Of a stretch of DNA of 64,000 nucleotides, positions 1-43,265 are shown in pieces. The first letter of the stretch is position 1, and each line of letters starts with the position of its first letter. The position numbers and the translations under genes are program-made. Source of the stretch: Escherichia phage vB_EcoM_G17; sequence record MK327931.1, one strand, 5' to 3'. The notes below the pieces were generated by a model, which searched no databases, was not told where the DNA came from, and saw only the letters and a list, made by a program, of their open reading frames with translations.

Positions 1-269
1 AATTCCAGTAAATTTACACCAATCCAATCAACATCACTATCAGTACTTAATTCCAATCGTAGCTTACCGCTATGACTAACAATATCGCGGAATTTGTATA
101 TTTTATTATCACGAACTATACACAAATCATGGTAATATTCATGTAATTCATCCAAAAACTTTATCCATACCGAACGATAGATTTCACTGTAGAGATATTC
201 TCCAGCATCAACCGTAGCGTATTGGATATACAAAAATTTGTATGTGAATTGTATATCATTTAATAACAT
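1..269 (-). CDS. family C small paralog, 3' end cut by window edge; function unknown
   Basis: ATG at 269 after AGAGG; N-term MLLNDIQFTYKFLY parallels neighbours. Confidence 0.6.
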   Translation of the reverse strand, partial: MLLNDIQFTYKFLYIQYATVDAGEYLYSEIYRSVWIKFLDELHEYYHDLCIVRDNKIYKFRDIVSHSGKLRLELSTDSDVDWIGVNLLE

Positions 270-279
270 ATGTAACCTC

Positions 280-591
280 TTATAAATTCACCAACTTCAC
301 AACTTTAATCTCGATAAATCCCCTATCGGTTATTTCCTGAAATTGAACATGGATTATACCATTATATGATTGCACACCATAGAAATCGAATTTATCATTT
401 CCATCGATAAAAGTACTGTAATTCTTTTTTATATATTCACCTACTGAATCTAAGTACTCAATATATAAATCAATAAATGGTTGTTCTTTGGATCGGTTAT
501 GTGAACCTATGTTGTTACTAACAAGGTATACATCATACAAATCATATAGGATCTTATAAGTGAATTGTATATCATTTAAATTTAATCCCAA
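280..591 (-). CDS. family C small paralog; function unknown
   Basis: N-term LNDIQFTYKILYDLYD; tandem with 582..848 and 845..1120. Confidence 0.7.
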   Translation of the reverse strand: MGLNLNDIQFTYKILYDLYDVYLVSNNIGSHNRSKEQPFIDLYIEYLDSVGEYIKKNYSTFIDGNDKFDFYGVQSYNGIIHVQFQEITDRGFIEIKVVKLVNL

Positions 592-848
592 GGGAATATC
601 TCCAACGGAATACTGGTAAATCCAAAATCAGTGTAGTACTGAACCTCAACTTTACCATCACGTCTAATGATTATATCAGAAAATTCTGCATGGTCATCAC
701 CAATAATAACAGTACTGAATTTTTTTTTAATCTTACCACGAATCGTATGAATCATTTCAGTGCATGTGTCTTCTAGACTAGGGCTATCATTGTCGTGTGC
801 TAAATCTCGAATAATCTTGTATGTTAGTAGGAAATCTTTATAATTCAT
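582..848 (-). CDS. family C small paralog; function unknown
   Basis: N-term MNYKDFLLTYKIIRDL; overlaps neighbours by 4-10 nt. Confidence 0.7.
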   Translation of the reverse strand: MNYKDFLLTYKIIRDLAHDNDSPSLEDTCTEMIHTIRGKIKKKFSTVIIGDDHAEFSDIIIRRDGKVEVQYYTDFGFTSIPLEIFPWD

Positions 849-1120
849 ATGTCCACCAAATCTATACTATATCTTTCATTAGTATTACTATCTATAAATG
901 ATAGTACTAATTTACCACCAAAACTATTAACTTGTTCTATCTTCTGTTTTTTACCACGAATGATTATCTCACTATTAACAAAATATTCACGTATCATTAT
1001 TAAGTGATTAATCCAGATAGTATGAGTGAATGTGTTTTCTCGTATTGTATTGAGATATCTTCCATTGTGATGTAAATCAAACAAAACACTGTATGTATAT
1101 TGTAGAACTTTATAATTCAT
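845..1120 (-). CDS. family C small paralog; function unknown
   Basis: N-term MNYKVLQYTYSVLFDL; ATGA overlap with next gene. Confidence 0.7.
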   Translation of the reverse strand: MNYKVLQYTYSVLFDLHHNGRYLNTIRENTFTHTIWINHLIMIREYFVNSEIIIRGKKQKIEQVNSFGGKLVLSFIDSNTNERYSIDLVDI

Positions 1121-1132
1121 ATATCCCCTTAC

Positions 1133-1160
1133 AAAAATAGCCCGAACTTATGTCGGGCTA
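1133..1160 (-). terminator. rho-independent terminator
   Basis: TAGCCCGA-7nt-TCGGGCTA followed by T5 on minus strand, just after stop of 1167..1853. Confidence 0.75.
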
Positions 1161-1166
1161 TGTACA

Positions 1167-1853
1167 TTATTCATCGTCGTCATCGTCATCTAGATCGATA
1201 TAGATACTATCATCACCATCATCAAAGTACTCCACAATAACTCCTGGAATATTAAGGGCAGTAAACATTGCATCATATTTCTCATCAGATGGAATCAAAA
1301 CAAATTCGTCAATGTTTTGAACTTCTGGCATTTTATCTTCGGGGATACCCATATCAACAAGTGACTGAATAATCTTTTCTTTGAATTCTAAAAACTTCTC
1401 TTCAGATTCAAAATCCATAATAAGCTGTGCAACATATCCTTCATCGTTACCGAATGAAATTGACATTTGTGCATCAGTACCGACATAGCACCAAACACGT
1501 TTACCTGTGTGCTGCTCAATAAAGTTTTGAATCTGTAACACAATGTCATGGCGAGAACTGTTAGCAATGTTGTTAAGATTTTCTACACCAGCATTAATTC
1601 CAGTACTGTCATTTGTTTCTTCAAATTCACCATAATCACCCAATACATACTGTACACCTTCATGATGTAATGCATATGCATAGTCAAGGTCAGCGAGTGA
1701 ATCGCACTTTCCACGGATCGGACGTAGGGAAAGACCTAAGCGAAGATAACGGAAGTATGTATTAGTATTTGTATTTGTCAACGTAATGCTCCTTAACAAT
1801 ATAAAAGTAGTTGCTGTTATTGTCAAAAAAGATAACCATCCCTTTATAGACAT
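1167..1853 (-). CDS. acidic protein with poly-Asp C-terminus; function unknown
   Basis: ORF; C-term DDGDDSIYIDLDDDDDDE; likelier start is TTG at 1781 after AAGGAG, since the upstream part overlaps 1762..2061. Confidence 0.7.
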   Translation of the reverse strand: MSIKGWLSFLTITATTFILLRSITLTNTNTNTYFRYLRLGLSLRPIRGKCDSLADLDYAYALHHEGVQYVLGDYGEFEETNDSTGINAGVENLNNIANSSRHDIVLQIQNFIEQHTGKRVWCYVGTDAQMSISFGNDEGYVAQLIMDFESEEKFLEFKEKIIQSLVDMGIPEDKMPEVQNIDEFVLIPSDEKYDAMFTALNIPGVIVEYFDDGDDSIYIDLDDDDDDE

Positions 1854-2061
1854 TTACACCAATTTTGATTTCACATATGTTATTTGATTTACTCGCTTCA
1901 GTCAATAACATTTTGTGCTCTTTACTGAAAGTGTGGAACAGTGGTTTGACATGCCACATTTCGATACCATCCAGTACTGAAAATTTTTCACTAAATTTAA
2001 TCATTGATTCTTGTAAAAAATATCCTGTAAGATTTATTTCATCACACATGCAAGTTTCCAA
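1762..2061 (-). CDS. hypothetical protein
   Basis: ORF in minus-strand gene train. Confidence 0.6.
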   Translation of the reverse strand: METCMCDEINLTGYFLQESMIKFSEKFSVLDGIEMWHVKPLFHTFSKEHKMLLTEASKSNNICEIKIGVNVYKGMVIFFDNNSNYFYIVKEHYVDKYKY

Positions 2062-2335
2062 GAAAATTAATCACATCTGCATGTGATAATGTATCATTAC
2101 CTTCTAGTACATTAATGATAAACGGCACTTGACGATATAGTTCAGCCAGGAATTGTACCTCATCAGATGTGTAAGAATATCCCATAGGAACAACCTGTGC
2201 AGTCCAGTTTCCTAGAGTTTTGTTAGCAATAATTGCAACTACAGTATTACCTTTGTATTCAACATGGATGGAACGAAATCCTGATTGCTCATTTTGATCC
2301 CAAAGTACTGGATTGGTTTTGAACAGTACTGACAT
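2042..2335 (-). CDS. hypothetical protein
   Basis: ORF in minus-strand gene train. Confidence 0.65.
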   Translation of the reverse strand: MSVLFKTNPVLWDQNEQSGFRSIHVEYKGNTVVAIIANKTLGNWTAQVVPMGYSYTSDEVQFLAELYRQVPFIINVLEGNDTLSHADVINFLGNLHV

Positions 2336-2337
2336 AA

Positions 2338-2871
2338 TTATTTCCTCATGTATTTTATAACGTCTTCAAATAATTGTATTTTTAAGTCCTCGTCATTTCC
2401 AGGTAAAAACTCACGAAAACTATCAAAATCTTCATTTTTTGCGAAGTTACGCATTTGTGTTGAGCTATATTGACTTACATTACGGTCAATACCTGCCTGA
2501 ATTGCTTTTATACTACAAAAATTATACAACTTACCATTGTACATGTCAAGAGTTTTTTGAAAAGAATCAATACGGTCAGAACCACAAATGAAAAGAACAT
2601 CTAAGTACTTTCCATCCAGTTCTCTCATTATATCAAATAGATTGTCTTCTGTGTAGATGTTCTCTTGCACTGAAGGATAGAATCCCTCTGTATAATACAT
2701 TTTTAGTTCAGGTGGGAGTGGGTTTTTTATATTGTCAGTACTGGTGCTTAGATATATTTTTAAATCAGCATTGTACTGTTCTTGTAATGTTTTGGCCTTT
2801 TCAAAAACTAAACCATGTCCACGATGTACAGGATTAATACGACCAAACGTTAATACACATGTTTCTTTCAT
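2338..2871 (-). CDS. HxGH-type nucleotidyltransferase (NMNAT/PPAT/cytidylyltransferase-like fold)
   Basis: N-term FGRINPVHRGH (HxGH motif) and C-terminal SSTQMRN (SxTxxR motif); ~177 aa like archaeal-type NMNAT. Confidence 0.7.
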   Translation of the reverse strand: MKETCVLTFGRINPVHRGHGLVFEKAKTLQEQYNADLKIYLSTSTDNIKNPLPPELKMYYTEGFYPSVQENIYTEDNLFDIMRELDGKYLDVLFICGSDRIDSFQKTLDMYNGKLYNFCSIKAIQAGIDRNVSQYSSTQMRNFAKNEDFDSFREFLPGNDEDLKIQLFEDVIKYMRK

Positions 2872-3389
2872 AAATTCTTCATCACCAATCCGAGAGATTT
2901 AAGATAATTAATTTTAGCAGTGGTTAAGTACTTATCCAGTACTATCAGACACGAAGGAAATGGTGCTGAATCTGTTTTCTTATCGGGTTCTTCTGGTATA
3001 CCAAATCGTAATCTTCCCTTAATAAAACAAATACAATCACATATTTTAGCAGCATAATCCTGAAAAGCAATTGTGTCGGTTCTTGAGGGTACAAGAATAA
3101 CTACAGTTGCCCCGTTATTATATGCATCTACTGCTTTAGATAACCAAGTTTTCAAATCACTGTATGGTGGATTCAACCAAACTATATTATTTCCCCAATC
3201 CTGTGATAGTGAATCATCTTCTGGAGTGAAAAAATTATCACACAATGCAGTCTCATCAACACAAGCAGCATCAAGTGTAAATCCCCATAACTCATCCAAA
3301 TCTTCAAAGAAATCTTTGGGAGTTGTCCAGTTATCTTTTCCAGTACTGAAATGTACTGAATGTTTTTTCGAAGCATCCTTCTTCGACAT
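2868..3389 (-). CDS. dam: phage-type DNA N6-adenine methyltransferase (Dam family)
   Basis: DNWTTPKDFFEDLDELWGFTLDAAC ... VWLNPPYS catalytic NPPY; 4-nt overlap with downstream nucleotidyltransferase. Confidence 0.8.
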   Translation of the reverse strand: MSKKDASKKHSVHFSTGKDNWTTPKDFFEDLDELWGFTLDAACVDETALCDNFFTPEDDSLSQDWGNNIVWLNPPYSDLKTWLSKAVDAYNNGATVVILVPSRTDTIAFQDYAAKICDCICFIKGRLRFGIPEEPDKKTDSAPFPSCLIVLDKYLTTAKINYLKSLGLVMKNL

Positions 3390-3405
3390 TATATAATTCC
3401 TTTTG

Positions 3406-3951
3406 TTAGAGACAGTTGTGTACTATCTTATCAAAAGTACTACTGTCAATGTTATATTCATATAAAAATTTAAAATGTGAACCGTAACGCATCATCAGAT
3501 TAAACTCTTCTTCAGTATTGAACTTGTAATCATGAATAGTCTCAGGGGTACATTTTAAACCCAAGAACTCTATAATTTCAGATGTTACATCATATCCTGA
3601 ATTGAAGTATTTAACCCAAACACATTTTCCTTGTGGGTTGTATTTTCTATATTCTCCTTCTAGTTCTCCTTTAATAATATGAGCCTTAACACTTATTGAA
3701 TTATTACTATATCTTTCTTCAAAATAATTACCATACTGGGCTTTTGATATTGTTGGTTTTTGAGTAGGAAGTAATTTAACTGAAGTTACTTCAATTCCAT
3801 TTTGTAATTCCTTTATATAAGAAATGCATCCTTTTTCTTTAATAACCACATATCCAGTAAAGATATCTTCGTCTTGTGATTGATTAATGCAATCATCAAA
3901 ATTCAAAGTTTTATAAGTAACAGTTTTTTCTTTTCTAATAAATGCCATCAT
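3406..3951 (-). CDS. hypothetical protein (weak MORN/YwqK-like repeat resemblance)
   Basis: ORF trimmed to MMAFIRKEK; GEYRKYNPQGKCVWVKYFNSG-type repeat. Confidence 0.6.
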   Translation of the reverse strand: MMAFIRKEKTVTYKTLNFDDCINQSQDEDIFTGYVVIKEKGCISYIKELQNGIEVTSVKLLPTQKPTISKAQYGNYFEERYSNNSISVKAHIIKGELEGEYRKYNPQGKCVWVKYFNSGYDVTSEIIEFLGLKCTPETIHDYKFNTEEEFNLMMRYGSHFKFLYEYNIDSSTFDKIVHNCL

Positions 3952-4039
3952 TATTCCTATGGAAACATCAATGAATATACGTGACGTTGATTGCATCAAC
4001 ATCAGTAGAATTATCATGCTACGCATGTCTAATTCTACA

Positions 4040-4568
4040 CAAGTACTATTTTCTTTTAATTAATATTGACGGGGTTTGCTTGAGCATATTTCATCCCCCC
4101 GCAGGGGAAAGAACAAAAAAATTTGACGCTGGTGGCCTTCACATAGTTCATATCACGAATTCTCTTACGAGACGAAAGCGGGTTGCTCTGTTTCTCTCTA
4201 TCGCGGTTCTTGTAGCAACGGTCGTCGGTCTTAAACATCCCGACACATAATACAAATACCATATGACCAGTACTTGTATTTGATTTCACAAAATTTGGAC
4301 GCAACTATATTGTATAATTCCGACCGCATATTTCTTATGAAATCTCCCTTAGATAATTGGTAAGGTGCGATCCTTATATGTCTATCGAGGAACTCTCTTT
4401 ATCCTATTGGAGTTCTTTATACAGCCGCATTGCCGTGAGTGGTTCAAACTATGCCATCATCTAACGGGTTTCATCTGCTGTTCGTACTGAAAGGACTACT
4501 CATCTACCCTCTACATTTTCGAGTGGATTAGGCTTTTAATCATTTCCTTATGGGAACCTTTCAGGATT
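4040..4568. other. ORF-poor, GC-richer island; candidate structured RNA
   Basis: ~0.5 kb with no convincing ORF in a dense genome; local hairpins such as TCCCC-CCGCA-GGGGA and GTTGCT..AGCAAC; contains a plus-strand Chi. Confidence 0.25.
4128..4135 (+). other. Chi octamer GCTGGTGG (plus strand)
   Basis: exact match read in gacGCTGGTGGcc. Confidence 0.8.
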
Positions 4569-4601
4569 AAAAAAAGGTGACTAACATATTATGTTGTCAC
4601 C
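4569..4601 (-). terminator. rho-independent terminator
   Basis: GGTGACTAACAT-att-ATGTTgTCACC stem followed by T7 on minus strand, 30 nt after stop of 4632..5486. Confidence 0.8.
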
Positions 4602-4631
4602 TTATATTATATCATTAACTTATCATTTGTC

Positions 4632-5486
4632 TCAGTTATATTCGGTTTTTTCTGTGAAATTTGTTAGTATATCAACACTAAAACTTCGAATAACCTCAAT
4701 CCTGCTTGGCATGAAACGATGTTTATTTTTAATATACAACTCATCATCTTCAATAAAAGACGTAAAAATAAATGTCATATCTTCACGTGGAATTTGTAAA
4801 ATATCACACATTTCATTTGCCGATGCTACTGGTGAATCGTTGTAGTACTGAGAGTATGCACTAGATTGGCGACCGATTATAATAGAATTTCTGATTAGAA
4901 AATTACTACAGTACTGAAAATCTTTGTAGTACTTTTCAATAATGTAAGGCATAAGTGCTTCTTTCACGTCTTCATAACCATTAGTACTATCAATTGCTAT
5001 ACAGTAATCTTCACGTTCTTTTTTCTCATGATGGTAATCATAAACATACTCAAAGAATGAATTTTTATTTAATGAATCATTTAAACCAACTGACCCACTA
5101 TAGTATGATTTTCTATCATTCATTCGATCATCTGGGCATGATGCATACATAGAAGTGTCATGTGATGATGTACCAATATAAATTTTCTTAGTAATATGAT
5201 TATACGCTATGTAATCATAATCTTGAACTCCAGTCAGCATTAACTGGAACATTAAATCATCAGGAACATCAATTAACGGGTACTCAAACTTCGAATATCT
5301 ACTGCGGCAGAAGTTCTTTTCAAATGCTCGGTATGCGATAAAATCTTTTAGATTTTTACAAGATTCATGTTCATGAGCACTACTGCTACGTACATTGACA
5401 TTAGTCGATGTGCAATATCCATCCGAATCTTCGGTGAAGTTACCAGCATAATCCTTATTGTAGTCAACGATTAGATAAAGTTTCAT
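4632..5486 (-). CDS. hypothetical protein
   Basis: 284-aa ORF, own terminator. Confidence 0.75.
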   Translation of the reverse strand: MKLYLIVDYNKDYAGNFTEDSDGYCTSTNVNVRSSSAHEHESCKNLKDFIAYRAFEKNFCRSRYSKFEYPLIDVPDDLMFQLMLTGVQDYDYIAYNHITKKIYIGTSSHDTSMYASCPDDRMNDRKSYYSGSVGLNDSLNKNSFFEYVYDYHHEKKEREDYCIAIDSTNGYEDVKEALMPYIIEKYYKDFQYCSNFLIRNSIIIGRQSSAYSQYYNDSPVASANEMCDILQIPREDMTFIFTSFIEDDELYIKNKHRFMPSRIEVIRSFSVDILTNFTEKTEYN

Positions 5487-9513: not shown

Positions 9514-10043
9514 AACTTCTCCTTTATAGCTGTCATATTTAGAAGAAATTCAGTAAGCAATTCCTCCGTAACATGCTCTGTATACCAGAATATCACAATA
9601 TCTTTTGAAAGTCGTGTATTCATAAAAATATCTACTAACTCTTTGTAGAACTCTAGTGTTTCGAGATTTGTGAGAATTAACGAGTACTGAAAGAGTAATT
9701 CTTCCGTTAGATTAAATTCTGGATAAAGTAAATCATTGAACTCATGTGATGCAGTTTGAACTTTAATTTCTTTGAAGTTATTGGTTATACAACCGGAATA
9801 AATATTTCGGTGCAACTCTCTGTACAACGCAGCATAATCTATGAATTTTGCTTTAGGGTTAAAATCAAGAACACTTTCACCTTTATATGACAATCGGTGG
9901 AACGCCGAGAACATAGTCACTTCCCACGGTTGCTTAATATCTAGCTCAGTAATATCAATATTATTGGACAGAAGAACCGTAAAAATCTCACCAATCTTTA
10001 ATAGTAACTTAGTACGTGCCAGTGCTACCATCGGGTCAGTCAT
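9507..10043 (-). CDS. family A paralog; function unknown
   Basis: core TEELLFQYSLIL. Confidence 0.75.
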   Translation of the reverse strand: MTDPMVALARTKLLLKIGEIFTVLLSNNIDITELDIKQPWEVTMFSAFHRLSYKGESVLDFNPKAKFIDYAALYRELHRNIYSGCITNNFKEIKVQTASHEFNDLLYPEFNLTEELLFQYSLILTNLETLEFYKELVDIFMNTRLSKDIVIFWYTEHVTEELLTEFLLNMTAIKEKLC

Positions 10044-10456
10044 TATACACCTTCATATTCATCAAGAAAATCTTCGATAATCATTTCAGCTTCATCCATA
10101 TGCATAGCATCAACTTCAATGATGCGAACTTTAGATGCATCCCAAATCATAAAGCTAGGAACATTATCAGGCTCGTAGTCATTTTTGTACTGAACAGCAT
10201 CATAACCTTGAGCAGTGCAATTCTCAATAAGTGAACGCCACTCATCATCACTGCCTAAATCTTCACACAGAAGCACGTTATCAACATCAACTTCTAAGGT
10301 ATGCAAGTATACTGTACATGCGTCTACTACGTTCAGTGGGCTTCTCAGCTTGCGTAATGCAGCTTCCAAAGCACTGTGTTTACCTCCCATATGAAGACCA
10401 CCATACGGGATATAAAAGTTATCAATTTTTACAGTACTCGCATGATACAGTTTCAT
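10043..10456 (-). CDS. hypothetical protein (not family A)
   Basis: 137-aa ORF, N-term MKLYHASTVKIDNFYIPYGGLHMGG; no FQ core. Confidence 0.7.
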   Translation of the reverse strand: MKLYHASTVKIDNFYIPYGGLHMGGKHSALEAALRKLRSPLNVVDACTVYLHTLEVDVDNVLLCEDLGSDDEWRSLIENCTAQGYDAVQYKNDYEPDNVPSFMIWDASKVRIIEVDAMHMDEAEMIIEDFLDEYEGV

Positions 10457-10465
10457 ATTTCATTC

Positions 10466-11050
10466 CTATTTCAGTACTTTAGTCAATGCTTTCACAGCGG
10501 TTTCGAGTTGAGCATAGTCGTTAATTGTAAGGTAATGAATACCATGTGCCTTCATTTCAGCATCTATTTTACTATATAAATCAAACATGTCAAGGATATG
10601 ATTGTATGCATATGAAGTATTTGAAACACACAATTCTTGGAACAAACGTTCTTCCAAGTCATTCACAACTTCTCCATGAATGTCAAGTACTACACCATCT
10701 TTGTAAGTGTAGTACTCTTCACTCCACTCTTCAGAAAGTCGGAACAGTAACGGATTCCCGCCGAACACTTCCATGTCATAGGAATTTATCTCACTAAGTA
10801 GTGTTTCACCTGGTTCTGGTGTGAAGTCAAAATATGCGAGTGTTGTACCATCATAGTCCTTGAGTGATATACCAGTATGATTTAAGGTTACTTCACCATA
10901 ATTATTATTCTTGAACTTGATTTTGATATTAATCTCAATGTATTTTATTGTCTCATCATCACTGAAATTGTAATCAACTTTATACTTTTTCCAAAGAAGT
11001 TTGATATCTTTGAAGTACTTTAATTTACTTTCAATTTCTTTAAAGTCCAT
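10466..11050 (-). CDS. family A paralog; function unknown
   Basis: core LEERLFQELCVS. Confidence 0.7.
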   Translation of the reverse strand: MDFKEIESKLKYFKDIKLLWKKYKVDYNFSDDETIKYIEINIKIKFKNNNYGEVTLNHTGISLKDYDGTTLAYFDFTPEPGETLLSEINSYDMEVFGGNPLLFRLSEEWSEEYYTYKDGVVLDIHGEVVNDLEERLFQELCVSNTSYAYNHILDMFDLYSKIDAEMKAHGIHYLTINDYAQLETAVKALTKVLK

Positions 11051-11642
11051 CTGGAACCACCATTTCTTGAATGTGCTTACATTTTATATTTGCCATATTG
11101 GTATGTAATATAATGCTGTGTTTACGCAATGATTTTACTTTGTAGCACTCATTGAGTACTGAAATAATTCCCCATAACTCTTCTACACTAATAGTGATAG
11201 GTTCACTTGTACTCAGTTGCATCAGTGCTGCTTGAACATCATCTTTGTTATTAATAGTGAACTGGATTCCTCTTTTGAGAATTTTAGTTTTTGGATTGTA
11301 CTCAGCTAATACATCACCTTCTGGATAACCCTCATGAAGTAATAATGTTGTTTCAAAATCACCGCAGTTGAAGTTAATTTCATCATAATCAGGTACACAA
11401 ATGTTCCCTTCCCCGTACTCATTAGGTTCAGATTCTAGTGTTAAAATACGCTGAGTCTCATTGCTCAGGATGATAGAATCATTCCAGTACTGGGTAGTGA
11501 ATGCTCTACGTTTCTTTTGAAAGCACATACTCGACATTGAACCATACTTCTTGTATATGGACTTCTTGAACTCAATAGCAGCAGGAGCCACCTTGATAAC
11601 TTCACGAATTAAGTCAATAGCTTCTTGATAACTTTTTCTCAT
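11040..11642 (-). CDS. family A paralog (degenerate core); function unknown
   Basis: core-equivalent SVEELWGIISVL; array position. Confidence 0.55.
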   Translation of the reverse strand: MRKSYQEAIDLIREVIKVAPAAIEFKKSIYKKYGSMSSMCFQKKRRAFTTQYWNDSIILSNETQRILTLESEPNEYGEGNICVPDYDEINFNCGDFETTLLLHEGYPEGDVLAEYNPKTKILKRGIQFTINNKDDVQAALMQLSTSEPITISVEELWGIISVLNECYKVKSLRKHSIILHTNMANIKCKHIQEMVVPDGL

Positions 11643-12190
11643 TTATCGTATCCATATAAAATATGATCTAGTGTACTTTGTACTTCTTCATGAAAGAATG
11701 AAGGGTAAACTTGTATCAATTTATCTTTAAGTTCAAGGGAATGGCATAGTTCTAATGTTTTGTAACAATCCTCGTACTGTGCCAGATCATGTAATGTACT
11801 TAACTGAAAATGTTGTTCTTCGGAGTACAATAAATCATAAACCATATTATCGGATAAAAGATTAGATTTGATTGAAGGATCAAGTACTGTCTGGTGGTGA
11901 CCAACCCAAAAGATAGCTTTTGAGTTAATGTTATTACAACCCCATCCTTTCCCCATCTTTTGGTGAATAGCAAATACACAGGAATCATACAAATTAATGC
12001 TCAGACGTTCTTCGTCTGCATGGATAGTTACACCATCAATAGATAGTGTATATTTGAAATCCATAGCCCCCTCACTTCGTGCACGAGAACTAAAGACCAG
12101 ATATCGATGAATTATGGTATTGATTTTATCTGTCCATCCATCAACACATTTGGATGCACATAATGTAAAAAGATCATGATTGTAGTTCAT
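11639..12190 (-). CDS. family A paralog; function unknown
   Basis: core SEEQHFQLSTLHD. Confidence 0.75.
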   Translation of the reverse strand: MNYNHDLFTLCASKCVDGWTDKINTIIHRYLVFSSRARSEGAMDFKYTLSIDGVTIHADEERLSINLYDSCVFAIHQKMGKGWGCNNINSKAIFWVGHHQTVLDPSIKSNLLSDNMVYDLLYSEEQHFQLSTLHDLAQYEDCYKTLELCHSLELKDKLIQVYPSFFHEEVQSTLDHILYGYDK

Positions 12191-12220
12191 AAAATTCTCC
12201 TTTAGGACAATGTATCATAC

Positions 12221-12246
12221 AAAAATACCAGAGTCAACCCCTGGTA
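12221..12246 (-). terminator. rho-independent terminator overlapping a possible promoter
   Basis: TACCAG-9nt-CTGGTA followed by T5 on minus strand; loop carries TTGACT, 17 nt from TACATT. Confidence 0.55.
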
Positions 12247-12251
12247 CGAAT

Positions 12252-12833
12252 TTAATCCATCATAAGTGGGATAATTGCCCATATCTTTTTCATAATCATA
12301 TCTTCAGTAAAAACAAATGTTTTAGGAGCAGTATATGATATTGACACACCAAATGGAAGTTTGATTGCATCATCAATTATATTATGAATATCAAACCATG
12401 TTTTAACATAATCATACGGTGGAAGTTCATGAATTGTACTTAACTGAAAGTAATTCTCTTCACCAAAATCACTATATTCAATTTCACAAATTTTAGTGAA
12501 TTGATGATTCCATTTAGATATAATACTATTTTTATTATTGTACATAGTAGTTCTATGCATAAAACCATTTTTGCTAGTATGATTTGATATTACGTTTTCT
12601 TCAATGTCAGTATCTATTTTAAAATTCATATCAAAGTTGTAGTACGGACTTGACGATTCTTTGAATTTTAAATGTAAATTGCGATTGTTATTAATTTCAA
12701 TTTCAATACAAAACACATCTGAATCAAAACGATTAAACTTGTAATCGTTATCTTCCGGTAGATTCTGTATTTTTTTCATAATACTAAGCATAGGGTGTAC
12801 TACACTTTTAATAAAATCATTTGTTATTTTCAT
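12252..12833 (-). CDS. family A paralog; function unknown
   Basis: core GEENYFQLSTIHE. Confidence 0.75.
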   Translation of the reverse strand: MKITNDFIKSVVHPMLSIMKKIQNLPEDNDYKFNRFDSDVFCIEIEINNNRNLHLKFKESSSPYYNFDMNFKIDTDIEENVISNHTSKNGFMHRTTMYNNKNSIISKWNHQFTKICEIEYSDFGEENYFQLSTIHELPPYDYVKTWFDIHNIIDDAIKLPFGVSISYTAPKTFVFTEDMIMKKIWAIIPLMMD

Positions 12834-13326
12834 AGTATTCCTTTAGAACTTTATATGATTCAACAATACTATCTTGTGTATAATTTGAACTATATACAAC
12901 AGCACTTGTTTTAGTTGACCATAGATATGACATAAAGGTTATAACACTACTACATGGACTTAATGTATTGTTTTGAAATTCAATTTCTTCAATGTTATCA
13001 GTACTGGTATAGATGAATTGGAAAGTACCCATTGATTTATTGGACAGCGATACTATAGTAGAATCCGTACCAGGACTATACATGAATGTCTCATTACTAA
13101 TTGAACTATCATTAGTATATGATGGTTTGGGAATATAAATCAAACGCATGATATCGCGTTCAAGACCTGACTTATTACTTTCCACCAAAGAAATCATATC
13201 TATATTTGATATATGTTCAACACTGACATGGAACTTTTTGTCGAGAATCACATCTCCATGAGAATTTTTATATGAAGACAAAATCTCATACATCTCAACT
13301 AATTCGCGTGCATTTAATAAACTCAT
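12817..13326 (-). CDS. family A paralog; function unknown
   Basis: core IEEIEFQNNTLS. Confidence 0.7.
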   Translation of the reverse strand: MSLLNARELVEMYEILSSYKNSHGDVILDKKFHVSVEHISNIDMISLVESNKSGLERDIMRLIYIPKPSYTNDSSISNETFMYSPGTDSTIVSLSNKSMGTFQFIYTSTDNIEEIEFQNNTLSPCSSVITFMSYLWSTKTSAVVYSSNYTQDSIVESYKVLKEYYENNK

Positions 13327-13751
13327 GTTTTGTCTCTTAATGAAAGAATATCCTTAGTATAAACTGAAACAGAAATATGATTATATTTCATCATTAATTT
13401 ATACACATAAGAAGCTAGTACTAAATCGTAAATTAATTTAGTATTATACAGTACTTGGTATTGTAACGCAAGTGAATCAATATCATCTTTACTTTCAATA
13501 TCCAGAAATGTACCGAAAAATGTAGTACCGTAGAGATGAAAAGTGGAATTAATGCAATCAATGCATTCATTGTCCAATAGAGTAGATGCTGATGCCCTCG
13601 GTGAATCCCAAATAGTCACTGCGTGTATGCCCTCAACGAACAAATCTATCCATATTTTGTGTCGTTGTCTTTTTTTTGTTTTATAATTTTCTGGATTTGA
13701 AAGTGTAGTTTCAATTATATCCCATATGTACAAACAATCATCTCTTGTCAT
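13323..13751 (-). CDS. family A paralog (degenerate core); function unknown
   Basis: core-equivalent DSLALQYQVLYN. Confidence 0.55.
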   Translation of the reverse strand: MTRDDCLYIWDIIETTLSNPENYKTKKRQRHKIWIDLFVEGIHAVTIWDSPRASASTLLDNECIDCINSTFHLYGTTFFGTFLDIESKDDIDSLALQYQVLYNTKLIYDLVLASYVYKLMMKYNHISVSVYTKDILSLRDKT

Positions 13752-14329
13752 TATATAACCTTATCCATTGCTGCATTTAATGCTTTTAAACGATCTACAT
13801 TCAAATTATTGAAGATGTACGTTCCTAACATGTGGAAATCGAACTGGTTCTTTTTGTATTCATGATAAATTAAACTACAAAAAATAATAGTACTAAGAAC
13901 CTCTTCAGGTATAACAGTGCTCATCTGGAACAGTTCTTCTTCAACTGTACTTGAATCTGGATTGATAGATTTTAACACATACTCTTCATCACCGAATAGT
14001 ACTTTAATATTATATAAAACACCAACAGTACTAATATGGAATGGGTGGTGTGAAAAACTTCCATCATCCTTAATTTGTATATCGGTTCTAATCTCACACT
14101 CTTCATTACTTTTACTTTTATTTTTTACAATACAAATATTTCTGGCCCCAGAAATAGTAAGAATACCGTGGTCGTAATATTCATTTGACCAACATTTGGA
14201 TGAAATTGATACATCACGGATGAGATATTGTTTTTCAATTTCTTTCGCACTACCAACAATTGATAGCATTTTTTTACTGATATCATATAATAACTGATGG
14301 CGTTCTGTCATATAACTATAAGCGTTCAT
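13751..14329 (-). CDS. family A paralog; function unknown
   Basis: core EEELFQMSTVIP. Confidence 0.75.
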   Translation of the reverse strand: MNAYSYMTERHQLLYDISKKMLSIVGSAKEIEKQYLIRDVSISSKCWSNEYYDHGILTISGARNICIVKNKSKSNEECEIRTDIQIKDDGSFSHHPFHISTVGVLYNIKVLFGDEEYVLKSINPDSSTVEEELFQMSTVIPEEVLSTIIFCSLIYHEYKKNQFDFHMLGTYIFNNLNVDRLKALNAAMDKVI

Positions 14330-14900
14330 ATTTTTCCTTAACAGATTCTATATTTTGAAGTAGTGTATTCAGAACATCAGTCTTGCAATTGATAAAATCA
14401 TTGTACATAACTAGTTCACCACAATCAAGAATTTTTGCAGTATCGTAACAAAGCATTAAGTACTCGAATTCTTTGTAATTGTCCAACAAGGATTTCTGGA
14501 AAATGAATGCATCTCGAATATCTTCACTTTGGTCTAATTCTGGTGGAACATCCAACCCAATAAATCCATCATCTTCACTGAAATTAGATTCTACAATTTT
14601 ATTCATTTTTTCATGTAATGCATTCGCAAATACCATATTAGAAGAAATAGAACCAATACGTTCACGATTTCTGGATGTGCGAATGTACATAGTAATCGTA
14701 TCCCATGAACTTTTAATTTTTTTAGAAAATTCATAAGTTTTATATACATCCAACTGAACTGATCCAAAACGATGTTTGGATTTGTTTTCAATTTTCAGTC
14801 GATAATCATCAAATTCAACAATTTCTGTAATGTCATGAATCTCTGAAAGTTCTGCAATGTCATGCATGAGTCTCAAAATTTTAGTTCTGATATGGTTCAT
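14316..14900 (-). CDS. family A paralog; function unknown
   Basis: core RDAFIFQKSLLD. Confidence 0.7.
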   Translation of the reverse strand: MNHIRTKILRLMHDIAELSEIHDITEIVEFDDYRLKIENKSKHRFGSVQLDVYKTYEFSKKIKSSWDTITMYIRTSRNRERIGSISSNMVFANALHEKMNKIVESNFSEDDGFIGLDVPPELDQSEDIRDAFIFQKSLLDNYKEFEYLMLCYDTAKILDCGELVMYNDFINCKTDVLNTLLQNIESVKEKYERL

Positions 14901-15463
14901 TGTGCATCCTCGAATTTAACAGGTACATGTTCATTAATGAAATTCTTAAGAGCCTGTACTAAATCCTCTAATTCTTTTGTACTGTATTTTAAAATAGTTT
15001 TAAAGTGAATCAAATCTTTTCTTTCCATGATCTTTGGAATTTTATATGCTAACTCTAAACAGCGTACAGTACTGGCATCATACAAAAGGTTTGCGTTGAA
15101 CATTAGAACATTGTATTCATCAGATGAAATTTTATAATTATATGTATCAATCACTTCATGTGTGTATAAATTCTTATACACAATTTTATTCTCACTGAAG
15201 TTTGAGCAAACACACAGATGATCGTTGTAAAATGAAGAACGATAATCTTGTTTACGTTGTACATCTGCTATGATTTGTAATACTGTATATTTTTCTTCAG
15301 AATCCAACTCAATGTTTGCATAACTGCTCGCAGTTTCAGATACAAGGATATTGATGTTATATTTCTCATTAACTTTAATGTACTGGCGTGAGCCAGTATC
15401 AGGAATGAACTTAAAACAATGCTTCAGAAGTAATGTGACTTCTTTAATTAATTCAGTACTCAT
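14897..15463 (-). CDS. family A paralog (degenerate core); function unknown
   Basis: trimmed to ATG 15463 after GGAGGAA; core-equivalent EYNVLMFNANLLYD. Confidence 0.6.
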   Translation of the reverse strand: MSTELIKEVTLLLKHCFKFIPDTGSRQYIKVNEKYNINILVSETASSYANIELDSEEKYTVLQIIADVQRKQDYRSSFYNDHLCVCSNFSENKIVYKNLYTHEVIDTYNYKISSDEYNVLMFNANLLYDASTVRCLELAYKIPKIMERKDLIHFKTILKYSTKELEDLVQALKNFINEHVPVKFEDAQ

Positions 15464-15490
15464 AGATTCCTCCAACTCTAGTTAAAATCA

Positions 15491-15519
15491 AGTATAACAC
15501 ACCTGAATGCTCTTGTAAA
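15491..15519 (-). promoter_or_regulatory. sigma70-like promoter inside the family A array
   Basis: -35 TTTACA (15514-19), 17-nt spacer, -10 TATACT (15491-96). Confidence 0.6.
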
Positions 15520-15530
15520 GCCATAAACAC

Positions 15531-15550
15531 AAAAAGACCCATACGGGTCT
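15531..15550 (-). terminator. rho-independent terminator
   Basis: AGACCC-4nt-GGGTCT followed by T5 on minus strand directly after stop of 15551..16117. Confidence 0.7.
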
Positions 15551-16117
15551 TTATTTTGGTAAAACACTGTCGATGTACGCTAGAACCTCATCTCGAAGGT
15601 ACGTTCCATCTATAGTTAGGTAATAGTTCATGGGAATATCACTCCCAACCTTCTCATAAATTTTCATACATGATATCACATCTTCATCACAAATGGTACT
15701 CAATTGAAAAATAACTTCATCGGTTAACGGTACGATATCATGTTTAGATAGGGGATTTGTATTTTCATTCAACACAATATTAATCAAGTTAGGAGTATTC
15801 TTTGACGAAATATAACGATGCTTACTACGAATTACCATTCTCGATAGTGAAATACTGGAACTCCATCTTGGATCAACATCTTCATATGATAACGATATTA
15901 ACATCTCGTGAAAATCTTGAAATTTCATTGACGCATAATATGTTTTATCCTCACCGTACATACCAAATGATTTAAATTCAATATCCCCCACTTTGTATGT
16001 ATCGACATCATTATTTGAGAACTTTATTAAACTATTAATTAGTCTAATTAGAATATCATCTTTATCCATTCTTAAATAACTCCAAGTGCATGTCGTATAA
16101 ATCTCTGAAGTCTTCAT
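15551..16117 (-). CDS. family A paralog; function unknown
   Basis: core TDEVIFQLSTICD; start possibly the internal MDKDDIL. Confidence 0.75.
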   Translation of the reverse strand: MKTSEIYTTCTWSYLRMDKDDILIRLINSLIKFSNNDVDTYKVGDIEFKSFGMYGEDKTYYASMKFQDFHEMLISLSYEDVDPRWSSSISLSRMVIRSKHRYISSKNTPNLINIVLNENTNPLSKHDIVPLTDEVIFQLSTICDEDVISCMKIYEKVGSDIPMNYYLTIDGTYLRDEVLAYIDSVLPK

Positions 16118-16625
16118 AGAAATCTTTTTCTTCGAGAATATTCTTTAAACTGGGAATCTCTTCCATAATTTCATCTATATCTGATTCTATGAAAAATCCT
16201 GATGGATTATCGTAGTTTTGTAACAGATAACTGAAAGTAATAATGTAAAGAAGTTCATTAGGATTGTGAATTAAACTTAGCTGGAACATAGCTGATTCTA
16301 AATCTGATTCAGTACTAAGATCAACCCAACGTGAATTTCTATAATCAATTCGTACTTGACTTGTATTTGGATTCCATGTGAAGCAATGTGTACCAATATG
16401 ACCTATACAACCAACCCTTGTACTGTCTCCGGTATCAACACTGATATCAACAAATAGTTCAATACCGATATCGGTTGATGTTACACGACCTTTTTTCAGA
16501 AATAAATCATTATCCTTACGAAATTGTTTGGATGAAAGAGTGTCAATGATGCACATCAATGTTTTTGCAAATGCAACACAATGACGAAATTCAAGCCTAT
16601 GAAATTGGTAATCATTGATATTCAT
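16062..16625 (-). CDS. family A paralog; function unknown
   Basis: core LESAMFQLSLIHN. Confidence 0.75.
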   Translation of the reverse strand: MNINDYQFHRLEFRHCVAFAKTLMCIIDTLSSKQFRKDNDLFLKKGRVTSTDIGIELFVDISVDTGDSTRVGCIGHIGTHCFTWNPNTSQVRIDYRNSRWVDLSTESDLESAMFQLSLIHNPNELLYIITFSYLLQNYDNPSGFFIESDIDEIMEEIPSLKNILEEKDFYEDFRDLYDMHLELFKNG

Positions 16626-17164
16626 AATTCAACCCTCAATATTTTATCAGCAATAGATATAACCTTATCATTGAATACATTACCAATCTCAATCCTTATA
16701 TACATAGCAGGTGGAATCTTTCCTTGTAGTGAATAATATGTTTGTATACCTAAGTACTCATTATCTGATAATGAAAATTTGATTCTCTCCATATCAATGT
16801 CTGTTACTGGTAAATCTATCATTTCATAATGGTAGTCAACGTTTTCATTGTATATTTTATCGAAGTAATTTGAATAATCACTACTAATGTAGATGCTATC
16901 ATCACGAATAATTACTTTATAATCAGAAGGTTCAAATTTATCTTTACAGGAAAAGAATGCATCATCTATTTTCTCTTCTCTTATGCCAAATAACATTCTA
17001 CCATCATATTTTACATCAAGAATACTACCTAGTATATTAATGGTACAATGCTCATCAATATTATGATGTAATGAACGTTTTTTGTATTTTGGGTTAATGA
17101 AAATTTTCATTAATTTTATACAAATTTCAGTAATGCATTTTACATTCTCATTTTCTATGTACAT
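16622..17164 (-). CDS. family A paralog (degenerate core); function unknown
   Basis: core-equivalent MERIKFSLSDNE. Confidence 0.55.
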   Translation of the reverse strand: MYIENENVKCITEICIKLMKIFINPKYKKRSLHHNIDEHCTINILGSILDVKYDGRMLFGIREEKIDDAFFSCKDKFEPSDYKVIIRDDSIYISSDYSNYFDKIYNENVDYHYEMIDLPVTDIDMERIKFSLSDNEYLGIQTYYSLQGKIPPAMYIRIEIGNVFNDKVISIADKILRVEL

Positions 17165-17651
17165 TAAAAGCCCTCTTTAATTCTTTTACATTTTTAATGA
17201 ATACTTTCATTGCAGAAATCTCAAAAGATAATGTATTAAATTTGCAGTACTTTTTAAAGTACGACATAATATATAACATTTTGAGTTCTTTTTCTGTATA
17301 AATTAAACTGTTTTGAAAGTAACTTTCTTCGGAAATGTCCGTAAGAAAAGAATAAAATGTATTTTGCTTGTGCACAATTTTAATACTATCAGACCAAGAT
17401 TTGTATGAAACGTAATCAGTACGTGCAAAATCATATAGTGAATTAGATGTATCTGTGTATGTTTCCGAGAACACAATCTTATATATCTTATCTTGAATTC
17501 GAGAACATATGTACCTATGGTCATCTGTCTCACTGATTGCAATGTATCTATGGAGTAAATCTTTATGAGCATTGATGAACTCAAACACTTCTAAACACTC
17601 CCTAGCGAACTTCATAGTTTCTCTGTACTTTCGGTTCATTAGTCTCTCCAA
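17148..17651 (-). CDS. family A paralog; function unknown
   Basis: core SEESYFQNSLIYT. Confidence 0.75.
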   Translation of the reverse strand: MERLMNRKYRETMKFARECLEVFEFINAHKDLLHRYIAISETDDHRYICSRIQDKIYKIVFSETYTDTSNSLYDFARTDYVSYKSWSDSIKIVHKQNTFYSFLTDISEESYFQNSLIYTEKELKMLYIMSYFKKYCKFNTLSFEISAMKVFIKNVKELKRAFNVHRK

Positions 17652-18052
17652 ACTTTACCAGGGAAGTGTTTCTCGTAGTACTCATCATCACTTAACATAT
17701 AATCAGGAGTTTCTACTTCTATGGTTTTGAAGATTGTTTCTGGAATGTGTGTGACTTTATTGGGTTGTACTTTATGTTCGCGTAAAACCTTCTGTATCGC
17801 TCCTAGACGTTGTAAATCGATACATGTAGGAAAGACTAAGCTGTACTGAAATAACTCATCAGGGGTCATTATAGACACATCTTTAGCTTGTTTGATTTGA
17901 TAATTAGTACTAATGAATATATCAAATCCTTGTACAGCATTATAGCTTACATAGGTTGTTTTATTTTTGTCAATAGGAGCACTTAAACGATATCCATATA
18001 TCCCGTGTTGGTCAACAACACAACGTTGCATAATTTTAATCATTTCTAACAT
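17639..18052 (-). CDS. family A paralog; function unknown
   Basis: core TPDELFQYSLVFP. Confidence 0.75.
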   Translation of the reverse strand: MLEMIKIMQRCVVDQHGIYGYRLSAPIDKNKTTYVSYNAVQGFDIFISTNYQIKQAKDVSIMTPDELFQYSLVFPTCIDLQRLGAIQKVLREHKVQPNKVTHIPETIFKTIEVETPDYMLSDDEYYEKHFPGKVWRD

Positions 18053-18398
18053 AATTTACCTCATATGTATTGTAACACCACGGTTTAACAATATCGATTT
18101 GTATATCATTTGCTTCATGAAAATGTTTAAGTACCTTCTGGTATTCCATTATTTCGTACACATCTTCAGTACTGATAGTGCTCTGCTGAAACAATTCCTC
18201 TTCTGATAAAGTACTATAATCAGGGATTTTTATTTCTGAATATATATCATTTATCTTTCCATTATATTGATAAATCTGGATATAAAATTGATTGTATTCT
18301 GGAATATAGGTCACATAATGGTTGTGGTTGATTACATATCTTGAAACAAAGTATTCAGTACCATCAGTCATGTACTGAATTGTTGTCGTATTTTTCAT
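18036..18398 (-). CDS. family A paralog (short form); function unknown
   Basis: core SEEELFQQSTIST. Confidence 0.75.
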   Translation of the reverse strand: MKNTTTIQYMTDGTEYFVSRYVINHNHYVTYIPEYNQFYIQIYQYNGKINDIYSEIKIPDYSTLSEEELFQQSTISTEDVYEIMEYQKVLKHFHEANDIQIDIVKPWCYNTYEVNYVRND

Positions 18399-18858
18399 TC
18401 AAATAATCCACGCATTTATAGTATACTACTAAATCTAAAAAGAATCGTTGTTTGTATTTGTAATGATGAAGTAGTGCACCATAAAATAACATAGCATTAA
18501 GTACTTTTACATCATGAATACAAGAACCCTGAAAGTACATTTCCTCTGACATGAACACTAAATCATCATACTTAACAAATACTGCTTCTCTATAATTGTC
18601 AATATTAATCTTCAAATCAGACCCAGGGCAATATGAAATGTATCCGGCTTTGTAATGAAAGTCATTGTCATCAAAGTACTCGGCATAGATTTGATTACCT
18701 CTTTCATTAGTAAACGCAAGTCTTCCTTTGGATGAACTAAACTCATCGTATTCGAACATACCACCAAATGGGTCAGGACTTCTGAACTCCTTTGCAATGC
18801 GATAGATATTTTCTGCAAATTCTAAAACACCATCGTAATCATATTCTGTAGTAATCAT
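18364..18858 (-). CDS. family A paralog; function unknown
   Basis: core SEEMYFQGSCIHD. Confidence 0.75.
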   Translation of the reverse strand: MITTEYDYDGVLEFAENIYRIAKEFRSPDPFGGMFEYDEFSSSKGRLAFTNERGNQIYAEYFDDNDFHYKAGYISYCPGSDLKINIDNYREAVFVKYDDLVFMSEEMYFQGSCIHDVKVLNAMLFYGALLHHYKYKQRFFLDLVVYYKCVDYLNEKYDNNSVHD

Positions 18859-19331
18859 AAACCATTTTTCTCCAGGTACTCAATAATACAATCGAGATTG
18901 TTCAGGTCCAAGTAGAAATGATCACTATCTGAATTTAGTTCATTTTTAAGGGCAGTGTAAATCACTGAACTGAAAACAATCCTCTCTGGATACACAGTAC
19001 TGTACTGGAAGAACTCTTCTTCAGTGTTAATTTCAGCCGTATCAAATCCTTCATTTATAAGATGATGATTGTAGTATTTGAAATTATCTGAACTTGGGAA
19101 ATGGTATGAAATAAAATCACCACTTGGTACTTCATCAAGCACTCTAATACTACAAGTTGATTCATCTGAACTATAGAGTAACCCATCCATAAAGGAAAGG
19201 TATCCATTTCGTTTTTTGACTGTATGTTTGCCTACGGAAAAATCTTCAGTAACATTTGTAAGGAATTTATAAACCCTGATAATGTCTTTTGCTATTTTTT
19301 GTGCATTGCTAAATGATAGGTCTTTGGACAT
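18855..19331 (-). CDS. family A paralog; function unknown
   Basis: core TEEEFFQYSTVYP. Confidence 0.75.
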   Translation of the reverse strand: MSKDLSFSNAQKIAKDIIRVYKFLTNVTEDFSVGKHTVKKRNGYLSFMDGLLYSSDESTCSIRVLDEVPSGDFISYHFPSSDNFKYYNHHLINEGFDTAEINTEEEFFQYSTVYPERIVFSSVIYTALKNELNSDSDHFYLDLNNLDCIIEYLEKNGL

Positions 19332-19364
19332 TGTGATATAACCCTTTACAATTAATATAAAGAG

Positions 19365-19394
19365 ATTATATCACAAAGAATCGGAGGGTGTCAA
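19365..19394 (-). promoter_or_regulatory. sigma70-like promoter inside the family A array
   Basis: -35 TTGACA (19389-94, overlapping the stop of the upstream gene), 18-nt spacer, -10 TATAAT (19365-70). Confidence 0.6.
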
Positions 19395-19927: not shown

Positions 19928-19934
19928 ATAAACC

Positions 19935-38192: not shown

Positions 38193-38400
38193 AATCTCTT
38201 TTTGCTTTCCTCGCCAAAAGGTACATATACGATTCTTCGTATTGTGCTTGGTAGTTTGTGTTTAAGAGTCGAAACAACTTCTGTTCTGCTAGAACTAGTT
38301 GCTTATCTTCATAACAACGGTAGCGTATCAACTTTTTGTATTCGATGTTGATTACATCCATTACTATAAGCCCATGTTCATCATCTGTCAAGTGTTTCAT
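38170..38400 (-). CDS. family B small paralog
   Basis: core LLNTNYQAQYEESYMYLL. Confidence 0.7.
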   Translation of the reverse strand: MKHLTDDEHGLIVMDVINIEYKKLIRYRCYEDKQLVLAEQKLFRLLNTNYQAQYEESYMYLLARKAKRDYENFKQR

Positions 38401-39808: not shown

Positions 39809-39810
39809 TA

Positions 39811-43235: not shown

Positions 43236-43265
43236 AGGGACTCCCTTAAAATTAATATCAATCAT

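Follow-up and report, generated by a model that had tools for sequence, protein, structure and literature searches.

A predicted large pseudoknotted RNA common to RaK2-like jumbo phages and Enterobacterales integrative islands

A gap poor in open reading frames (ORFs) in the genome of Escherichia phage vB_EcoM_G17 is predicted to hold the gene for a large structured non-coding RNA (ncRNA). Within the 64,000-nucleotide (nt) stretch that we analysed (MK327931.1; hereafter the window), positions 4001-4600 have a G+C content of 0.38-0.42, against 0.27-0.33 on either side (200-nt windows), and just two ORFs, antisense to each other, occur in 4030-4600: 3981..4250 (plus strand, 89 amino acids, aa) and 4056..4304 (minus strand, 82 aa). 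The original prediction, made for 4040-4568, had noticed both the composition and the scarcity of ORFs and had proposed a structured ncRNA, possibly a large phage ncRNA. A covarying fold with three pseudoknots, a promoter for each copy and the lack of a conserved ORF bear this out. The element lies where it was placed and is somewhat larger: conservation begins with a promoter at 4634 and extends at least as far as 4067, followed by further conserved hairpins up to ~3986. As read from sequence, ~4600-4067 on the minus strand is an independently promoted gene for a pseudoknotted RNA of ~480-540 nt, its transcription being predicted. The original prediction had missed the strand, the presence of four paralogues per genome and the wider family in RaK2-like phages and bacterial integrative islands.

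Comparative evidence for a folded RNA

Covariation across 36 homologues supports the fold. Alignment A1 holds the full-length copies that remain after removal of those at least 95% identical, in the sense of the window minus strand, with window 4063-4604 as its first row. These copies, less than 95% identical, share 98 invariant columns, many of them in loops and junctions. RNAalifold called 59 pairs, 38 with compensatory changes, and a search for covarying diagonals added three pseudoknots, giving a final model of 14 helices and 73 pairs. Canonical pairs fill 95.6% of modelled cells, compared with 75.3% after shuffling and 37-46% when partners are slid by 1-3 columns. Both sides change in 55 of the 73 pairs (527 cells), and 0 of 500 shuffles matched the observed value on any measure. 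Comparison with related phages for covariation had been proposed in the original prediction; 55 covarying pairs and three pseudoknots from just 36 sequences constitute unusually strong comparative support. The window copy forms a canonical pair at every one of the 73 modelled positions, and its single-sequence fold is modestly better than that of shuffles on the minus strand (z = -2.96) and less so on the plus strand (z = -2.0). Its features are as follows.

4606..4634, minus: promoter of the RNA gene, with -35-like TGAGAC (4634-4629), a 14-nt spacer and extended -10 TGATATAAT (4614-4606)
near 4601-4597, minus: transcription start predicted from the promoter
4569..4601, minus: hairpin GGUGAC (4601-4596)/GUCACC (4581-4576), then U7 (4575-4569), from sequence and minimum-free-energy fold
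4148..4564, minus: RNA core with 13 of the 14 modelled helices, including the three pseudoknots (A1, RNAalifold, pair counts)
4564-4560 with 4491-4487, minus: pseudoknot PK-a (covariation)
4266-4262 with 4152-4148, minus: pseudoknot PK-b (covariation)
4219-4215 with 4186-4182, minus: pseudoknot PK-c (covariation)
4526-4521 with 4511-4507, minus: helix (A1 model)
4499-4497 with 4486-4484, minus: helix (A1 model)
4481-4477 with 4425-4421, minus: helix (A1 model)
4467-4464 with 4436-4433, minus: helix (A1 model)
4415-4410 with 4395-4390, minus: helix (A1 model)
4344-4341 with 4285-4282, minus: helix closing the insertion domain (A1 model)
4280-4268 with 4261-4249, minus: helix, a 13-bp hairpin (A1 model)
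4205-4201 with 4158-4154, minus: helix (A1 model)
4198-4194 with 4178-4174, minus: helix (A1 model)
4171-4169 with 4164-4162, minus: helix (A1 model)
4282..4344, minus: optional insertion domain, hairpin loop motif U(U/A)UACAAUAUAG at 4314-4300
4224..4244, minus: hairpin GUCGG/CCGAC (4244-4240 with 4228-4224), formed with differing stems in 36/36 homologues (A1 columns 565-592)
4067..4147, minus: conserved 3' tail, with first CGUCA (4128-4124), U7 (4121-4115), helix 14 and second CGUCA (4071-4067)
4108-4104 with 4099-4095, minus: helix 14, hairpin UCCCC/GGGGG with an invariant G run
3986..4038, minus: conserved 3' extension, with a long hairpin (arms 4038-4030/4013-4005) and a small hairpin (4000-3995 with 3991-3986)

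Each pseudoknot involves a hairpin loop. PK-a joins a 5' segment, CUGNN, to the loop of a 3-bp hairpin (90% paired, 5/5 pairs covarying). PK-b joins the loop of the 13-bp hairpin to a strand ~110 nt downstream (100% paired, 5/5 covarying), through pairings such as UUGUA/UACAA, UCAUG/CAUGA and UCGAA/UUCGA in different copies. PK-c pairs GUUGC with GCAAC in the loop of another hairpin (100% paired, 3/5 covarying). Among the stems named in the original prediction, TCCCC/GGGGA, GTTGC/GCAAC and GTCGG/CCGAC match conserved pairings, while GATTA/TAATC falls outside the supported model.

Other parts of the fold vary in ways that column counts do not capture. Essentially all members form P1, an AAGG/CCUU hairpin, the GUCGG/CCGAC hairpin and the optional insertion domain, each with its own sequence; these regions are rich in insertions and deletions and hence stand outside the counts. 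The insertion domain is missing from some paralogues, and in others its motif also appears at a second site; the loop motif has a single exact match in the window and is specific to the element. Helix 14 is 99% paired and varies on one side only, through G-C/G-U exchanges, and therefore lacks compensatory support. We rejected two further pairings that look plausible in single sequences: a closing helix, 5' UUGRC / GUCAR 3', is 73% paired and shows no covariation, and a hairpin around the first CGUCA shows none column by column. The UACAAUAUAG insertion motif and the GAACGAAGUGA loop motif were likewise rejected as internal promoters, as neither is a genome-wide promoter motif and their window counts are at chance.

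The 3' tail carries its own signature. In the copy from phage RaK2, both CGUCA motifs read CUUCA, a concerted change. That change suggests that the same partner reads both motifs, or that both join pairings that are partly resolved. The original prediction had also marked a Chi site in this region. The octamer GCTGGTGG is indeed present at 4128-4135 (plus strand), within the conserved block ...GACGCTGGTGG..., and its match to Chi looks incidental, because paralogues and orthologues carry GCTGATGG or GATGATAG there.

Substitution patterns identify the strand and argue against a coding role. Modelled pairs include 213 G·U/U·G cells against 26 A·C/C·A cells, with several positions mainly G·U, and the RNA strand is therefore the window minus strand. 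The longest ORF per copy ranges from 34 to 101 aa (median 58.5), and its strand, position and length are inconsistent across the 36 homologues; the element therefore shows no coding conservation, and a search for a conserved reading frame in these homologues found none. Substitutions follow the pattern of paired RNA columns.

A conserved promoter precedes every phage and island copy. The motif TGAAAC(G)-N14-TGnTATAAT, to which the window copy has one mismatch, may be taken for a sigma70-type extended -10 promoter and also matches the TGAAACG class of 'divergent RpoD-like' promoters (-35 TGAAACG plus a classic -10) described in phages CBB and GAP32, mostly before DNA-synthesis genes (PMC5259590). 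In the window, the upstream gene (ORF 4632..5486) has its stop codon overlapped by the RNA promoter and its intrinsic terminator beyond that promoter. The right-hand terminator had been anticipated in the original prediction, and we find it on the minus strand, where U7 (4575-4569) comes after a hairpin (4601-4576). Because the promoter lies upstream of this terminator, a transcript from the RNA promoter would meet this hairpin and U-run within ~35 nt. The same sequence would thus be both the terminator of the upstream gene and the first structure of the RNA.

At the other end, conservation continues beyond the second CGUCA into the hairpins at 4038-4005 and 4000-3986. The long hairpin has a loop related to GAACG(A/U)AGUGA, and counterparts whose stems differ in sequence occur beyond the copies in phages, in RaK2 and in islands. 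This 3' extension may be part of the same transcript.

Paralogues in jumbo phages and copies in bacterial islands

The element is a multicopy family in its phage genomes. Over window positions 3900-4700 and ~61555-64000 the sequence matches Escherichia phage Sharanji (OR545507.1, Asteriusvirus, 350 kb) at 100% identity; for 121Q, PBECO4, phAPEC6 and further Asteriusvirus records, identity to the window is 93-99.8%. After BLAST showed four to five places per genome, we located the paralogues on the whole Sharanji genome, where a profile search confirmed exactly four copies.

Sharanji 326,477-327,047: copy A, the copy of this window
Sharanji 80,915-81,366: copy B, directly downstream of a sigma-factor gene
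Sharanji 191,727-192,200: copy C, beside EndoVII
Sharanji 270,452-270,981: copy D

All four copies, ~0.5 kb each, are co-oriented, sit in unannotated gaps of 600-840 bp and are only ~70-74% identical to one another. Flanking ORFs are intact and unrelated at all four loci. The insertion domain, for example, is missing from copy C. A promoter followed by a hairpin and U-run recurs in all A-type copies (GAP32, BF and several metagenomic ones), and C/D-type copies have a hairpin and U6 inside the conserved 3' tail.

Among phages, the family is confined to RaK2-like jumbo phages. Searches with each paralogue matched 71 of 50,697 phage records, every one RaK2-like, and found no match in any other phage of that set. 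The hosts of these 71 phages span Escherichia, Salmonella, Klebsiella, Erwinia, Yersinia, Serratia, Cronobacter, Pectobacterium and Xanthomonas. Most records carry the element at 4-5 places, and in each of the several-match records listed (Sharanji, 121Q, GAP32, BF and CBB) the matches lie on a single strand. Synteny, checked in four genera, is retained: copy A adjoins Dam in GAP32 and RaK2 too, and copy C adjoins EndoVII and gp46/47 in GAP32 and Serratia phage BF. The paralogues are therefore older than the split of these genera. The RaK2 copy is diverged and full-length (NC_019526.1 279,677-280,178; nhmmer E = 1e-47). A conserved-pattern scan of metagenome contigs returned 120 loci, of which ~50 are true homologues, several on contigs of 350-370 kb; a scan of IMG/VR with a strict conserved pattern gave 0 matches.

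Current annotation leaves the element blank in most phage records or, in a few, covers it with short 'hypothetical proteins'. Records PQ390715, PP886230, PQ330092, OR699181-8 and others place three to six such coding sequences over each RNA gene, and we consider the calls at these loci very probably spurious. In UE-S1 (ON568341), parts of two copies are labelled 'repeat_region'.

The same RNA occurs in rare integrative islands of Enterobacterales. We scanned one genome per prokaryotic species (representatives of 185,579 species) with a 20-base conserved pattern and obtained 8 matching contigs, where ~1 was estimated by chance; all 8 carry full-length homologues (E 1e-89 to 1e-113). They come from Buttiauxella, an Enterobacteriaceae isolate, Silvania, Enterobacter chinensis, Serratia sp., a complete Serratia fonticola chromosome, an Enterobacteriaceae metagenome-assembled genome and a 2.8-kb contig binned as Clostridium. 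In E. coli, 2 of 5,426 complete genomes have a copy, and none of the 72,556 plasmids in PLSDB does. The island copies retain the promoter, the conserved sequence blocks and the fold.

In the islands, the RNA gene adjoins a tyrosine integrase or large serine recombinase, lying directly downstream in the same sense in most cases. At loci where more of the island can be seen, the next genes are an opposite-strand CI-like repressor (helix-turn-helix, HTH, plus S24 peptidase), which the RNA faces head-on, a Cro-like winged-helix protein, a resolvase/invertase and a conserved 286-aa protein, which on inspection by eye seems to span the membrane near its N-terminus and has no informative matches. The islands span ~10 kb and lack structural genes, and the available sequence contains no recognisable Rep or primase. 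Compared with the phage, island proteins have no homologue except for a DUF4326 domain, and we found no other phage-derived sequence.

In E. coli LR-29-1 (positions 9,961-20,305 of the analysed NZ_AP027515.1 locus), a ~10-kb island between ffs (4.5S RNA) and ybaA encodes a tyrosine integrase interrupted by IS3, the RNA, a resolvase and a protein that seems to cross the membrane at its N-terminus. The island's cargo, an mSLOG-DUF4326 / DUF488 / dual-OB module, matches the PADLOC candidate defence system PDC-M45. In Serratia fonticola (positions 61-4221 of the analysed NZ_CP183218.1 segment), a large serine recombinase and two tandem ParB/RepB-like genes are followed by the RNA gene on the opposite strand, right against the chromosomal rof-tilS region; two tandem rof paralogues come next.

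Known RNA classes and candidate functions

The RNA belongs to no catalogued class that we searched. At gathering thresholds, Rfam 15 gave 0 matches in the whole window; a permissive scan of 3900-4700 gave only chance-level matches (E 0.17-7.7), all on the terminator or flanks; and seven divergent members, including RaK2 and an island copy, returned nothing on the element. Families covered include group I/II introns, GOLLD, ROOL, OLE, raiA, HEARO, RNase P, tmRNA, 6S and hammerhead. The Rfam/Infernal scan that the original prediction had put forward has thus been run and assigns no class. Its failure to find a tRNA cloverleaf is upheld by ARAGORN, which reports 0 tRNA or tmRNA genes in the window. 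Its suggestion of an intron remnant is unsupported: no Rfam intron model matches, no flanking gene is split, and at each of four unrelated loci the element stands by itself between complete ORFs. In the openly accessible literature searched, the element is likewise undescribed: this covered the papers on Sharanji, CBB and PA5oct, a jumbo-phage review of 2026, structured-RNA surveys and searches oriented to RNA sequencing (RNA-seq). Matched neither in Rfam 15 nor in this literature, it appears to be a new family within the style of large ornate RNAs such as GOLLD and ROOL: it exceeds 400 nt, has no conserved ORF, folds into a covarying, multi-helix, pseudoknotted structure and keeps many unpaired nucleotides conserved.

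The nearest known kind is the GOLLD/ROOL/OLE group of large ornate RNAs, and the comparison is descriptive. GOLLD (RF01998) and ROOL (RF03087) also span several hundred nt, with many helices, pseudoknots, conserved unpaired nucleotides and no ORF, and are also associated with phages and prophages. The element has no sequence or covariance-model similarity to them, and the likeness is one of description to an element known from sequence. It resides in Enterobacterales jumbo phages and islands with 4-5 paralogues per phage genome, unlike GOLLD and ROOL, which occur in Lactobacillales, rumen or lake organisms. GOLLD and ROOL are reported to self-assemble into homo-oligomers as seen by cryo-electron microscopy (PMC12286853).

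Other phage RNAs offer partial parallels. The RNA of phage phi29, pRNA, is a single-copy molecule of ~170 nt tied to the packaging motor and engages in loop-loop pairing. It too is phage-encoded and structured, but the element has no similarity to it, and here each paralogue's loop matches its own receptor; covariation alone does not separate such loop-strand pseudoknots from intermolecular contacts. PA5oct, a jumbo phage related to the RaK2 group, transcribes four ORF-free long ncRNAs, ncRNA001-004 (236-619 nt), of which two are abundant in RNA-seq (PMC7318152). They are ORF-free like the element, and we rejected them as homologues: with nhmmer filters off, only short low-complexity matches appear (E >= 0.03), with no conserved family block. 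The element's invariant GAUGAG, short stem and CGAA resemble a hammerhead core. A hammerhead was also rejected: CAGA stands where the U-turn would be CUGA, the segment following CGAA pairs far downstream (4481-4477 with 4425-4421), the three-way junction topology is wrong because the preceding hairpin is closed, and no Rfam match exists.

We favour a trans-acting folded RNA, giving it about an even chance: a protein- or ligand-binding scaffold, a ribozyme-like RNA or a self-assembling 'ornate' RNA of the GOLLD/ROOL kind. This preference follows from the concentration of invariant nucleotides in junctions and loops over >400 nt, from the retention of three pseudoknots, and from the persistence of the same constraints in islands. 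Host RNA polymerase would make the RNA during infection, and the folded product would work in trans. Because islands share no protein with the phages, its partner would come from the host or be the RNA itself, and the multiple diverged copies would serve dosage or sub-specialisation.

Several points weigh against this reading. The window promoter is trailed within ~35 nt by a hairpin and U7 expected to stop much transcription. Conservation beyond 4067 leaves the 3' end undefined. Transcript data for RaK2-like phages, sought in the literature, were not found, and transcription, ends and abundance are inferred. The comparison of phage and island proteins, which gave DUF4326 only, identified no partner protein, and no ligand has emerged. 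Finally, fixed-position copies, an invariant 3' G run and islands without replication genes fit a cis-acting origin at least as naturally.

That origin is the principal rival, and we regard it as possible, if tentatively so. A persistent RNA-DNA hybrid near the G-rich 3' tail would prime the leading strand through RNA polymerase, RNase H and a Pol I-type enzyme, in the manner of ColE1 RNA II or a T4 R-loop. In those systems (T4 ori(uvsY) and ori(34)), a promoter-driven transcript of ~0.5 kb yields the primer through its folding (ColE1) or its presence (T4); T4 has several R-loop origins per genome, which need only host-type enzymes. The 4-5 dispersed copies would then be the origins of a 350-kb genome, and islands would use the same protein-independent origin after excision or on helper-phage infection. 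Consistent with this, the copies are dispersed at conserved positions and co-oriented, even copy C, which opposes its neighbouring genes; the G5-6 run and hairpin of the 3' tail are invariant; and the phage has genes for RNase HI and a Pol I-like protein (Sharanji annotation). Promoters of this class were reported, in CBB and GAP32, mostly before genes for DNA synthesis (PMC5259590). The islands, with their integrase and CI/Cro genes and, in Serratia, two ParB/RepB-like genes by the RNA, have no recognised Rep or primase in the available sequence. Yet an autonomous origin would be expected among the plasmids surveyed, which hold no match. The element has no homology to ColE1 RNA II or the T4 origins, no antisense copy-control RNA is evident, and its structure is far more constrained, with 98 invariant positions and three pseudoknots over >400 nt exceeding the known needs of primer formation. 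GC skew merely tracks the direction of the genes, does not change at the four loci and is uninformative as an origin test.

A bolder proposal, which we hold doubtful, makes the element a self-contained, protein-independent module for replication or hijacking, with phage copies as RNA-primed origins and islands as jumbo-phage satellites, or else a self-assembling RNA-only particle. If the former were true, the islands would be the first known satellites of lytic jumbo phages and would use the RNA for replication or recognition on RaK2-like infection. If the latter, phages and islands would have in common a new RNA-only self-assembling particle.

It is unlikely that the element is best understood as a satellite or decoy handle, a phage RNA captured by islands to exploit RaK2-like phages (induction, replication, packaging) or to hinder them. 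Such capture would account for islands of ~10 kb, free of structural genes, in which an integrase or a serine recombinase is accompanied by a Cro-like regulator, an SOS-type CI (HTH plus S24 peptidase) and defence-type cargo (candidate system PDC-M45), for the single promoter type that drives the RNA in islands and phages, and for island rarity (2/5,426 E. coli genomes; 8 contigs among 185,579 species). The absence of any further phage-derived sequence or protein in the islands speaks against it, and we know of no experimental link between these islands and jumbo phages. This reading concerns island carriage and leaves the primary function with a trans- or cis-acting phage RNA.

A cis-regulatory leader of the downstream gene or genes, such as a giant riboswitch or processive antitermination RNA, is very unlikely. 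Copies A, B and D do have a same-strand gene starting 40-100 nt past the conserved region, and A/B-type copies end without an obvious terminator. The downstream genes are unrelated between copies, however; copy C converges on opposite-strand genes, the island RNA runs head-on to the CI repressor gene, and C/D-type copies contain the internal hairpin and U6. Hardly credible is a locus that makes no RNA at all, whether a DNA repeat (a site for protein binding, recombination or packaging, for instance) or the remains of a gene for a protein: the two CGTCA(G/A) motifs flanking a G/C hairpin, both CTTCA in RaK2, could reflect a DNA-binding protein, but compensatory changes in 55/73 pairs and 213 G·U against 26 A·C cells are not expected of a double-stranded DNA site, no reading frame is conserved, and a promoter is conserved at one end.

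To our knowledge, few natural RNAs of such size and complexity exist. Earlier classes (RNase P, group I/II introns, OLE, GOLLD, ROOL, raiA and HEARO/omega RNA) each opened new biochemistry, and there is a realistic chance that the function of this RNA is itself new. It is present in cultured phages of E. coli, Salmonella, Klebsiella, Erwinia and Serratia that are under development for therapy, in genomes whose annotations leave it blank or mask it with spurious proteins. It bears on how 350-kb RaK2-like genomes begin replication, and its occurrence both as several copies in lytic jumbo phages and as one copy beside island recombinases constitutes a testable phage-island link.

Neighbouring genes and gene-poor regions

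The element's neighbours in the window are all minus-strand genes.

2338-2871, minus: cytidylyltransferase-like protein
2868-3389, minus: Dam methyltransferase
3406-4026, minus: protein without a Pfam match, downstream of the RNA element
4632-5486, minus: protein without a Pfam match, upstream of the RNA element

The start of the downstream gene probably needs revision. The ATG of its longest ORF (4026), which is also the start in the Sharanji gp543 annotation, sits in the loop of the conserved long hairpin of the 3' extension (4038-4030 pairing with 4013-4005). The true start is more likely to be at 3951-3949, where an ATG follows AGGA. Given both observations, the gene is probably annotated ~25 codons too long.

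Further gene-poor sequence occurs near the right-hand end of the window. Positions ~62370-64000, equivalent to Sharanji 34,817-36,711 and continuing there to 40,800, contain more long gene-less gaps (1.9 kb, 1.5 kb and two of ~0.6 kb); the RNA family is absent from the gaps at Sharanji 34,817-40,800. Directly after this ORF-poor region, at Sharanji 40,817-52,484 and outside the window, lies a plus-strand tandem array of about ten paralogous genes of ~380 aa, one of them annotated as an RCC1-repeat protein.

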